From: Basidiobolus ranarum
Lineage: Eukaryota
DNA: 52,309 nucleotides
NCBI GenBank assembly: GCA_040143965.1
Contig: JASJQH010006890.1
Coordinates: forward strand, 1 to 52,309
Direction of reading: 5' to 3'
The translations under genes and the position numbers were made by a program. How positions within the stretch are numbered: position 1 is the stretch's first letter; the number at the start of each line of letters is the position of its first letter. The notes below the pieces were generated by a model that saw only the letters and a list, made by a program, of their open reading frames with translations, had not been told where the DNA came from and ran no database searches. Below, piece by piece: positions 15,748-18,610 of this stretch.

Positions 15748-18610
15748 ATGTTGTTAAATACTGGTGAGAAATCAGGACGCGGGATATGGAAGCCTCCTGA
15801 GACCAGAAAATTGATAGAAATCCGTAGAGAGCTTGACGACCTTTTCTTTTACACGAAAAAAAGAATAGTTGATGAGCAATGGCAAAAAGTGGCCGAACGA
15901 CTACAAGTTTCTGGTTTTAACAGAACCATGTTAGAGTGCAAAATAAAATGGAAGAATTTACTCCAAAAGTTCAAGGTATGGGCTTCTCTTTTTTAAGAAT
16001 ATTTTTGAGCGTGTTTGGCGAGTGACCAACCGTAACAACTTAATGACCTCGAAGTTTCGGATGTTTCGTACCTTTATTAACTTGCTTGCATTTAGGAAAC
16101 ACTCCAACCTGGATACACCGGTTCTACCTTCCCTTTCCACGAAGATATGCAGTGGTATGCTGCGAGACTGCTTAGAGAGGGGAAAGAAGAAAGCGCAGAA
16201 AGTCCCGCAAGAGAAGGCGGAAGACACACAACTCCTATCGGGGAAAATTCTCATAATTCTCTAACAGTTGGTTCAGTTTCATTACACGAACCACGTAGTG
16301 CACATTCTCCACATACTCCTCACAAACTTGCAGTCCCTCATACCCCACAAGGGAAGAGTGAAACTACTCATAGTGACATTAAAATCCAGAATATACACTC
16401 AGCATATATGCCTCGAAGCGTACCATATCATGAAACTTTGGGATCAACTGATCTTTTACCAGTTGAACCCTCGGCCTTTCATTATCCCAATCAGCCACCT
16501 AAATCGCTATCACCATCCTTTCATGCTCACCAATATCCTCCAGTATCTTCTCCGATTCCAATGTCCAAAAGACTTAAGCCCGCAAGATATGAAGAGGTTT
16601 GTACTTATGCGCATGAATATTCTTTGATATTTCAGTATTTTAAAATCACTACATGATCCTTTCTCGAGACAAATAGTTTTATTCATAATTTCTATTTTTT
16701 AATATCCATCAGTCTTCATATTTCTATGGTCCCTATTTCGATTGATGTCTCTTCTAACACTCTTTATATTATTCACTTATTGTTTAATACGTGATTTTCT
16801 CAGTTTGAGCCGCTATTATCCTCAGTCCGTTACGATCCTCTAGAAGTTCAGAGAATCAACGAAATTTTAAAAAATGACGAACGTGTTAAAGTGGCTGGTA
16901 TTGATATAAATGGGATATTGCGCGAAAAAATATTGATCAAATCAAAGTTTCTATCCATGTTGTATGATGGTTTTGGTGAGAATTACGCTTTTATAAAACT
17001 TAAACGCGTAGATTCTAATTTTTGGAGCAGGATTCAGTGGTTCAATATTTGGCTGGGGTGAACGTGAAGCTTCCTCTTTAGGCTCAGAAATTGAAGGTTG
17101 ATATTCTCCATCTATTATTTACTTTATGCTTTTGGTATACTTACACTTATTTTCGAAACCTCGAAGGGTATAGTTACCTCGTTGCAAAAGTAGACCTTGG
17201 TACTTTTCGAAGAATACCTTGGGAGGAGAACCTTCCTCTTTTCCTTGTCAGATTTTTCACTCAAGAGGGGCAACCGGTTAGTGTTTGTCCACGTCAGATA
17301 TTAGGGAAAATCGTCCAGGAATGTCACTCCATGGGTTTTGAACCTTTATGCGGAGTGAAATATGAATGGTACAATTACAAAGGTTGGTAACTTATCTTGC
17401 ATTAAGTTGTTTATCATTCTACTTATCTTTTCACCTTGACTGTTAACTCGGTAGAGACCCCGGTTACTTTGCGGGAAAAAAGTTTCAAAGCTGAGCCTCT
17501 CACTTCTAACCTGTTCAATCTAACTTTGGAGGGGTCAAAAGAAAAGCGAGTGTATTTCAACGAATTGTTCCAGATGTTACAAAAATTTGACTGCCCTCTT
17601 GAAAGTCTTTGTACCGAAGTTGGTATGTGCTAAGAAATTAGCATGTGAAAACATGTTGGCTTGCTTACTAACTATGAAATTTTGATAGGGCCTGGTCTGT
17701 ATCAAGGTGCCCTTCAATATGGATCCGCATTAGCTATGGGTGATCGAGCACAACTTTTCAAAGTTGCAGTGAAACAGATAAGTTTACGCCAGGGAATAAT
17801 GGCTTCATTTATGGCAAAACCCAAGGAAACTATGCCTGGATGTTCTGCACGACTACATTTCTCCTTAAAGGATATCAGGTCAGCGAAGAACATTTTTTCT
17901 AGACGTAATGAGGTTGGAATGAGGGAGCCGCCAAGAGACGGTTTGGAGGATATGAGCCAAGTGATGAATTGGTTTGTCGCAGGCCTTCTACGTGGATTGC
18001 CGAGTATATTGGCTATATTGGCTCCATACGTTAATAGGTACATAGAGAGAAATCCTCTGCGAATGTAAAAAAAAGAAAAATTAACAATTATATTACTCTG
18101 TAGCTATAAAAGGCTTGGTGAAAATGCATGGTCCCCCATGATAGTTTCGTGGGGACATGAAAATAGAAACAGTGCTATTAGAATTGTTAGTTCACAGGCT
18201 GACGCTGAATCTACGAGATTGGAAGTGGTACGTACCGACCATTATTCAGGTTTATTTTATTTCGAATACTTTACTTAAATCCTGGGTTTTAGCGAATTTC
18301 AGGATCAGATATGAATCCGCACCTAGCACTTGCTGCTTTACTTGGATGTGGTATTTGGGGAGTAAGGAATAAGCTGGTCATTCCTGTCCCTCCTAGTGTA
18401 GGTGTTATTGTTAATGATCCCAGAGCCGAGAAATTTCCAAAAACCTTACTTGAAGCGACTCAAAAAATGCTTGAACATGGAAGTGTAGCCAGAGAAGTTC
18501 TTGGCGATGAATTTGTAGACCATTATGGAAGTACCAGACTACATGAATGGAAACTATGGGAGCAATCTATCACTGATTGGGAAACCAAACGATATTTTGA
18601 AATGGTTTGA
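15748..18610 (+). CDS. Trihelix/Myb-SANT-like DNA-binding domain fused to a degenerate glutamine synthetase (GSI-like, FluG C-terminal type) domain; about 713 aa, 9 exons
   Basis: Exons 15748-15975, 16096-16596, 16804-16975, 17031-17096, 17167-17382, 17455-17622, 17689-18037, 18104-18227, 18293-18610 total 2142 nt with compatible phases. N-terminal WKPPETRKLIEIRR..QWQKVAERLQVSGFNRTMLECKIKWKNLLQKFK..FPFHEDM; GS motifs VKVAGIDINGILR, DLGTFRRIPWE, TEVGPG, SFMAKP, APYVNSYKRL, SWGHENRNSAIRI, RLEVRISGSDMNPH, ITDWETKRYFE. Confidence 0.85.

Follow-up and report, generated by a model that had tools for sequence, protein, structure and literature searches.

One account connects eukaryotic proteins that resemble type I glutamine synthetase (GSI), FluG, NodGS and CsTSI among them, with nitrogen signalling and with development (PMC9909507). 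The C-terminal domain of FluG, PA5508 (PDB 4HPP) and PuuA are described as GSI folds that carry a Trp or another non-acidic residue in the flap and lack an equivalent of D50 (PMC6478659). PA5508 and PuuA, like FluG, NodGS and CsTSI, keep their metal ligands, and FluG needs them: alanine at the ligand equivalents is reported to give loss-of-function phenotypes (PMC6478659). Lengsin, a protein of the vertebrate lens (PDB 2J9I), is presented as a GSI remnant without catalytic activity (PMC2667176). Unlike the ligand-bearing proteins, the GSI-like domain that we describe here, from the fungus Basidiobolus ranarum, has had three of its six metal ligands replaced, with R321 kept. It is encoded within a stretch of 52,309 nucleotides (assembly GCA_040143965.1, contig JASJQH010006890.1, positions 1–52,309; hereafter the window), where it occupies positions 16804–18610 of the + strand as the last seven exons of a longer gene. 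The original prediction, made by eye from the sequence, had placed a glutamine synthetase (GS) domain at 17031–18330 and proposed that it is a pseudoenzyme with three replaced metal ligands, comparable to lengsin.

For the assignment of residues, Escherichia coli GlnA (L001) and PuuA were taken from NC_000913.3 and aligned by MAFFT with 18 family proteins. Positions are given in Salmonella numbering, to which one is added for the E. coli position; E. coli GlnA shows the expected residue at all 20 Salmonella-numbered landmarks, so the transfer of numbering is sound. Relative to GlnA, the window protein carries E129K, E220Q and H269R, and the codons, read directly, are AAA at 17358–17360, CAA at 17703–17705 and CGA at 17850–17852. 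The three substitutions of the original prediction thus hold at their predicted codons, and alignment with GlnA and PuuA did not restore the ligands. Instead, K, Q and R stand in these columns in each of the three Basidiobolus rows (the window protein and the B. meristosporus proteins P0002 and P0003), whereas E, E and H stand there in 17 of 17 other rows. The complete ligand pattern (E129, E131, E212, E220, H269, E357) reads K, E, E, Q, R, E in all three. HMMER pairwise alignments to the solved chains 5dm3, 11zs, 4lnf, 9qur, 7cql and 7tdp likewise set K, Q and R opposite the canonical residues. Misalignment was ruled out by the agreement of these six independent pairwise alignments with three multiple or profile alignments, and sequencing error by the presence of identical residues in two species and two paralogues.

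Table 3 of PMC6478659 gives one metal to the counterparts of E129, H269 and E357 and the other to those of E131, E212 and E220, which bears out the earlier assignment of E129 and H269 to the same (n2) metal. By this division, two of three ligands are gone from the n2 site and one of three from the n1 site. Retained in all three Basidiobolus proteins are E131, E212, H271, S273, R321, R339, R344, R355, E357 and R359. This list agrees with the residues first proposed as retained except for E327: the Glu of the WG.ENR motif, which had been read as this residue, sits one residue before R339, and the flap column itself holds Trp (18129–18131), as in gamma-glutamyl ligases and FluG. The motif changes first noted are present as well. 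GWD has become GWG (17051–17059) or GWS, with G, S and G in the three proteins at an Asp that is kept in 18 of 18 canonical rows; this motif does not correspond to D50, a correction to the original prediction. LRGK has become LREK (16918–16929, outside the range 17031–18330), and CGYS has become FNLT (17514–17525, so that GYS reads NLT here), FNTA or FNLA. In addition, G46 is replaced by Glu in three of three Basidiobolus rows, compared with Gly in 16 of 16 canonical rows.

We surveyed the wider family in two collections. A search of 1.84 billion representatives with full-length P0002 returned 7619 matches at E <= 1e-3, and the best 150, together with matches from earlier searches, were aligned to a family profile. 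Among the 162 rows of this set that cover all six ligand columns, 150 read EEEEHE and 12 deviate: the three Basidiobolus proteins (KEEQRE) and nine scattered others, for the most part metagenomic proteins without a name. From a profile search of a collection of 5.8 billion proteins we took the best 120 matches, bringing the combined set to 124 fungal proteins and 134 domain rows. All of these best 120 matches are fungal and none is from Basidiobolus, so no canonical Basidiobolus paralogue is found among them. All six ligands are covered by 117 fungal rows, comprising 114 canonical rows and the three from Basidiobolus, and the 17 partial fungal rows hold no deviant residue in the columns that they cover. 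Because the non-Basidiobolus rows are canonical without exception (114/114), the K/Q/R set is unique to Basidiobolus within an otherwise invariant fungal family.

The same survey yielded two observations on GS-like proteins elsewhere. Degenerate metal sites are also found in six unrelated, unnamed metagenomic proteins (P0058, P0091, P0146, P0149, P0182 and P0112), and all of these but P0112 have Lys or Arg at ligand columns; P0058 carries E212H, E220K and H269R, and P0091 carries E129R, E212K and H269R. Basic replacement of GS metal ligands, judged from these alignments, seems to recur. A giant bacterial protein of 4424 residues (P0036), with cluster members named from Candidatus Auribacterota, has seven GS-like profile matches, six of them long and with all canonical ligands, forming a tandem array.

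The timing of ligand loss was addressed with a maximum-likelihood tree of 25 chosen rows: the fungal members that carry names, two proteins from bacteria, and PuuA and GlnA of E. coli (the unnamed P0008, P0009 and the fragment P0015 were left out). The Basidiobolus proteins form a clade with support of 100, on a stem of 1.05 changes per column and with tips of 0.03–0.09. Within it, the window protein pairs with P0002 (support of 95), and P0003 is an outparalogue. Since all three proteins carry K, Q and R, this topology indicates that the loss of ligands is older than both the gene duplication and the divergence of the two species, and it places the ligand changes on the Basidiobolus stem. NCBI taxonomy assigns Basidiobolus to a phylum of its own, Basidiobolomycota.

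What has happened since can be read from differences among the three proteins. The GS-like part of the window protein is 88.3% identical to P0002 with no gap columns, compared with 73.0% and one gap for the linker that precedes it and 91.6% for the Myb/SANT part, compared with residues 1–95 of P0002. Variation among the Basidiobolus proteins is depleted where the family is conserved: it touches 16 of 158 such columns and 68 of the 283 columns in which the family varies (Fisher p = 3.5e-4). Replacements are also conservative, with a mean BLOSUM62 score of +0.74 for the 54 that separate the window protein from P0002 and +0.57 for the 56 that separate it from P0003; random non-synonymous single-base changes of the coding sequence have an expected score of -0.43, and none of 5000 resamplings reached the observed values. 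These protein-level measures show that the domain has remained under constraint after losing its ligands, which fits a maintained rather than a decaying gene. A further lead comes from the ESM Atlas, which holds a model of P0002 (predicted template modelling score, pTM, 0.65; mean predicted local distance difference test, pLDDT, 0.70). Its GS-like part superimposes on models of the GS family with template modelling (TM) scores of 0.89–0.91 over 443–445 residues, hinting that the GS fold is intact.

The changes that accumulated on the stem are unevenly spread. Ninety-seven columns are conserved in 94% or more of 18 canonical fungal rows, and 17 of them are changed in all three Basidiobolus proteins: Salmonella positions 46, 58, 64, 129, 132, 177, 180, 183, 210, 218, 220, 268, 269, 328 and 410, and two columns in which E. 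coli has no residue. Twelve of them are fixed to a single new residue, and the remaining five (58, 177, 180, 183 and 328) differ among the three proteins. These five belong to the Asp50' loop, the Tyr179 loop and the position next to the flap, which together we take to form the ammonium or amine pocket of the Salmonella enzyme. Within two residues of the catalytic positions of Table 3, 8 of 26 conserved columns are changed, against 7 of 66 elsewhere, a modest enrichment (p = 0.028) defined by a one-dimensional window rather than by distances in three dimensions. Around the metal sites the figure is 7 of 15; around R321, the flap, R339, R344, R355, E357 and R359 it is 1 of 11. Such a regional split is the signature that would be expected if metal chemistry and the second substrate had been given up and the surface contacting glutamate and nucleotide were still selected.

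The family from which the domain descends looks to be of the gamma-glutamyl-ligase type. The nearest relatives are in Funneliformis, Dimargaris, Ramicandelaber, chytrids, Mucorales, Mortierellales and some Dikarya. The canonical family occurs in Mucoromycota, Glomeromycota, Zoopagomycota, chytrids and some Dikarya, and a few of its proteins go by the name 'Type-1 glutamine synthetase 2'. These direct homologues are 44–48% identical over the whole GS part and match the Basidiobolus domain in length, in the Trp flap and in the beta-grasp part at the N-terminus; they differ in keeping all six ligands, GWD, LRGK and GYS, and in having no Myb/SANT domain. We know of no substrate characterised for this canonical family. 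Functional type I GS handles ammonium with a Glu327 flap and Asp50', and neither is present: Trp occupies the flap in 120 of 123 fungal rows with coverage there, and throughout the family Gly or a gap stands in the D50 column, with the N-terminal alignment being less certain. A Trp in place of the Glu of the true GS flap, together with absence of the Asp that deprotonates ammonium, is described for PA5508 and FluG (PMC6478659). Scores fall far short of the cut-offs of the NCBIfam equivalogs. P0003 scores 186.1 bits with the GlnA equivalog TIGR00653 (cut-off 429.15), and the values are 187 for NCBIfam type III GS (cut-off 470) and 158.5 for the gamma-glutamylputrescine synthetase model NF045547 (cut-off 650). 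Among solved structures, the family profile matches 5dm3 (261 bits) and 11zs (256) best, well ahead of PA5508 (4hpp, 108 bits), indicating only moderate sequence relatedness to gamma-glutamyl ligases of that kind. Because of the Trp flap, we assign the fungal family to the gamma-glutamyl-ligase type rather than to true GS, and on this sequence evidence the ancestor of the Basidiobolus domain is a Trp-flap, gamma-glutamyl-ligase-like fungal GSI-like enzyme and not glutamine synthetase proper. A metagenome scan with P0003 found a single locus, on a soil contig (L003:4–1129), which encodes a canonical fungal-type relative at 53% identity and not a Basidiobolus orthologue. Its intron after the TE.G of the E212 motif lies at the same position as in the window gene, which points to an old origin of this intron within the family.

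Taking these results together, we hold it probable that the GS-like domain is a maintained pseudoenzyme, derived from a fungal Trp-flap GSI-like enzyme and carried by a Myb/SANT DNA-binding regulator as a dead-enzyme sensor or scaffold. On the Basidiobolus stem the domain lost three of six metal ligands (E129K, E220Q, H269R) along with residues of the amine or ammonium pocket, namely the Asp of GWD, the GYS of the Tyr179 loop and residue 328 beside the flap, but appears to have kept the fold and has kept the Arg, His and Ser residues through which active relatives contact glutamate and ATP. Most likely it carries out no ligation any more and may serve instead as a ligand-binding module, a ring-forming module or both. 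K129 and R269 could neutralise the acidic n2 pocket formed by E131, E212 and E357. The proposal that Lys129 and Arg269 take the place of the n2 cation makes chemical sense, as both would face these three residues, and the untouched cluster of Arg residues contacting glutamate and ATP is compatible with ligand binding that persists. Like its relatives, the module probably still assembles into rings, and it may have retained an affinity for glutamate, a nucleotide or some related acidic compound; tethered by a disordered-looking linker to a Myb/SANT-like (trihelix-type) DNA-binding domain within a protein of 713 residues (714 in B. meristosporus), it would be part of a regulator. The interpretation first proposed is thereby supported in part: the pseudoenzyme reading is well backed by sequence comparison, with half of the ligands gone, the loss specific to one lineage and the domain still constrained at the protein level, although its ancestor is not glutamine synthetase proper.

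Two other accounts of the domain itself have to be set against a maintained pseudoenzyme. One is that the gene is a decaying, non-functional remnant. Loss of three catalytic ligands and of several family-invariant residues is what such decay might produce, but the 470-codon GS frame is open across seven exons bounded by GT..AG introns, two paralogues and both species share K/Q/R, and the absence of gaps relative to the orthologue, the conservative replacements (0/5000) and the depletion of variation at family-conserved columns all speak for maintenance; we regard decay as highly improbable. The other, which we judge quite unlikely, is that the domain remains catalytic through a remodelled active site, using one metal (n1: E131, E212 and Q220) and assigning to Lys129 and Arg269 the phosphate-polarising role of the n2 metal, with gamma-glutamyl phosphate as intermediate or with a new substrate. 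All residues contacting glutamate and ATP are kept in three of three proteins, the 12 changed columns fixed to the same residue could reflect a new function, and the crystal structure of PA5508, 4HPP, is described with a single Mg (PMC6478659). One-metal or otherwise altered chemistry is possible, given that Q220 is still able to act as a metal ligand and that E131, E212, E357, H271 and every Arg residue are in place. This capacity weighs against the reading that we prefer, as do the modest size of the enrichment near catalytic residues and the nature of the evidence for constraint, which consists of protein-level proxies for the ratio of non-synonymous to synonymous substitution rates (dN/dS). 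Opposing an active enzyme are the reported loss of FluG function upon single ligand-equivalent alanine changes (PMC6478659), the retention of all six ligands in each of the 114 fungal rows outside Basidiobolus that cover them, and the divergence of the amine-pocket columns among the three proteins, as if no second substrate were being selected.

The gene that contains the domain was assembled by three-frame reading and coordinate splicing. It has nine exons on the + strand and a product of 713 residues, and all eight introns are GT..AG; the one between the linker and the GS-like part is 207 nucleotides long and the others span the range of 55–120. Exon 1 (15748–15975) carries the start codon and most of a Myb/SANT-like DNA-binding domain (PF13837; 51.7 bits, cut-off 27), and exon 2 (16096–16596) the end of that domain followed by a His/Pro/Ser-rich linker with a basic patch, SKRLKPARY, at 16564–16590. 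The first GS-like exon (16804–16975) encodes the N-terminal beta-grasp part with LREK, the second (17031–17096) GWG, and the third (17167–17382) GVKYEW with K129 and, at 17364–17366, E131. The fourth (17455–17622) holds FNLT, the equivalent of the Tyr179 loop, and E212 (17616–17618); the fifth (17689–18037; PF00120, 64.7 bits, and aligned to solved structures) holds Q220, R269, H271 (17856–17858) and S273 (17862–17864). The sixth (18104–18227; PF00120, 35.3 bits) encodes R321 (18111–18113), the flap Trp, R339 (18165–18167), R344 (18180–18182), R355 (18216–18218) and E357 (18222–18224), and the seventh (18293–18610; PF00120, 68.1 bits) R359 (18293–18295), the C-terminal helices and the stop codon. 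The intact frame first claimed is therefore obtained once GT..AG introns are removed; the range 17031–18330 itself includes five introns and leaves out both the first GS exon and the final 280 bases. Likewise, the single 'GS domain' of the original prediction does match PF00120, and is one part of a larger Myb/SANT protein.

Database proteins follow the same plan. A search with the translation of 17691–18035 retrieved P0001 at 100% identity, together with P0002 and P0003. The NCBI model of the B. ranarum gene (P0001, 620 residues) is an exact suffix of the 713-residue product; its start is the Met at 16147, inside exon 2, so that it omits the Myb/SANT exon 15748–15975 and positions 16096–16146. 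In P0002 (B. meristosporus, 714 residues) Pfam finds PF13837 (54.3 bits, cut-off 27) and PF00120 and no other domain, and thus no amidohydrolase domain; in FluG, by comparison, the N-terminal domain is an amidohydrolase (nodulin-like) and not Myb/SANT. P0003 (460 residues, same species) has PF00120 only and is annotated as a stand-alone protein. Over whole proteins PF00120 scores 236.6 bits in P0001, 227.4 in P0002 and 246.7 in P0003 (cut-off 24), compared with 35–68 for single exons. The window sequence supports a 713-residue model that resembles P0002. As a lead, the nearest structural neighbours of the Myb part of the Atlas model include the plant trihelix factors GT-1 and GT-3b, at TM scores of 0.75–0.79.

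Whether the two parts form one protein is a matter separate from the pseudoenzyme question. We think it quite likely that the GS-like domain is the C-terminus of a 713-residue protein with an N-terminal Myb/SANT domain, transcribed as a single mRNA. Exons 1 and 2 belong together because the Pfam Myb match in P0002, which reaches profile position 87 of 89, spans their junction. The linker is joined to the first GS exon by a phase-0 intron (16597–16803) with a GTTTGT donor at 16597 and compatible phases on both sides. The alternative, which we consider unlikely, is that a Myb/SANT-linker gene and a GS-like gene are separate transcription units fused by two annotation pipelines, the pseudoenzyme being a stand-alone protein like P0003. 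Several features fit that arrangement and count against a fusion: the joining intron is the longest of the gene; the paralogue P0003 is annotated alone; an ATG at 16726 inside this intron is in frame with the first GS exon and followed by a possible intron of 57 nucleotides; and no protein with both Myb and GS parts was seen in any other organism among the best 150 library representatives, nor did a word search with the Myb part match anything but P0002. With its weak donor, GTCTCT at 16747, the ATG could conceivably define a mini first exon for a GS-only isoform, but the donor is unlike the others of the gene and the exon finds no support in the B. meristosporus proteins. We favour a real fusion because the junction peptide ARY(E/D)E|FEPLLSS is common to the gene models of both species, the N-terminus of the GS part has no in-frame ATG, an in-frame stop (16792–16794) lies 9 nucleotides upstream of the GS exon, and the P0003 Met aligns with Ile in the product of the window gene and with Val in P0002.

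If the two parts are indeed fused, other systems offer a possible logic. Enzyme-fold modules joined to DNA-binding domains, or partnering them, include the MocR/GabR regulators, in which an aminotransferase fold accompanies a winged helix-turn-helix, and Bacillus subtilis GS with TnrA/GlnR. The likeness lies in an enzyme fold that reads a nitrogen metabolite or gives an oligomeric scaffold to a DNA-binding domain; the differences are that these are bacterial, with other folds or non-covalent partners, and that B. subtilis GS is catalytically active. By analogy, the dead GS fold could be a metabolite-sensing, ring-forming module of a eukaryotic Myb/SANT regulator, binding glutamate-type or nucleotide-type ligands with Lys129 and Arg269 as stand-ins for the n2 cation, so that a multimeric Myb array would read nitrogen or energy status at DNA. 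We offer this as a possibility that is itself doubtful. The stand-alone paralogue might co-assemble into the same rings. Lengsin, to which the domain was first compared, is a functional analogue, in which an enzyme fold was recruited to a non-catalytic role. By descent it is distant only: with the family profile 2j9i_A scores 35.2 bits (E = 5e-8, rank 38 of 40), and its origin is independent, in the animal lens and without a DNA-binding domain.

Automatic labels in the ESM Atlas gave further leads on domain combinations. Helix-turn-helix domains (HTH_17) accompany 28% of the members of a bacterial GS-domain cluster whose commonest phylum is Candidatus Omnitrophota, and PF13837 Myb/SANT domains are fused to P5C reductase in Chordata and to an RNase J-like protein in plants. 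In the window itself, a neighbouring open reading frame at 19488–20165 on the + strand matches GIDE (PF12483, 54 bits) and a C3HC4 RING finger (PF13920, 50 bits), resembling MUL1-like E3 ubiquitin ligases; Pfam found no match in single-exon open reading frames within 20647–21550.

Literature searches, judged at overview level, found no earlier description of a Basidiobolus GS pseudoenzyme or of a GS–Myb fusion. What appears to be new is an independent, phylum-level GS pseudoenzyme in fungi, its site lost through two basic residues and an amide, with an apparent fusion to Myb/SANT. For most eukaryotic GSI-like proteins, despite the ties of FluG, NodGS and CsTSI to nitrogen signalling and development, the mechanism is described as unknown (PMC9909507, PMC6478659). 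Basidiobolus represents a natural experiment in this respect, since the only members of the family detected there have lost the metal site and yet are conserved, and one is apparently joined to a DNA-binding domain. Binding of glutamate, a nucleotide or a gamma-glutamyl compound by this domain, if it occurs without turnover, would show the GS fold acting as a sensor and would provide a tractable test case for basic side chains that replace a catalytic cation. If the domain is merely a scaffold, it would constitute a second, independent, lengsin-like recruitment of the GS fold.

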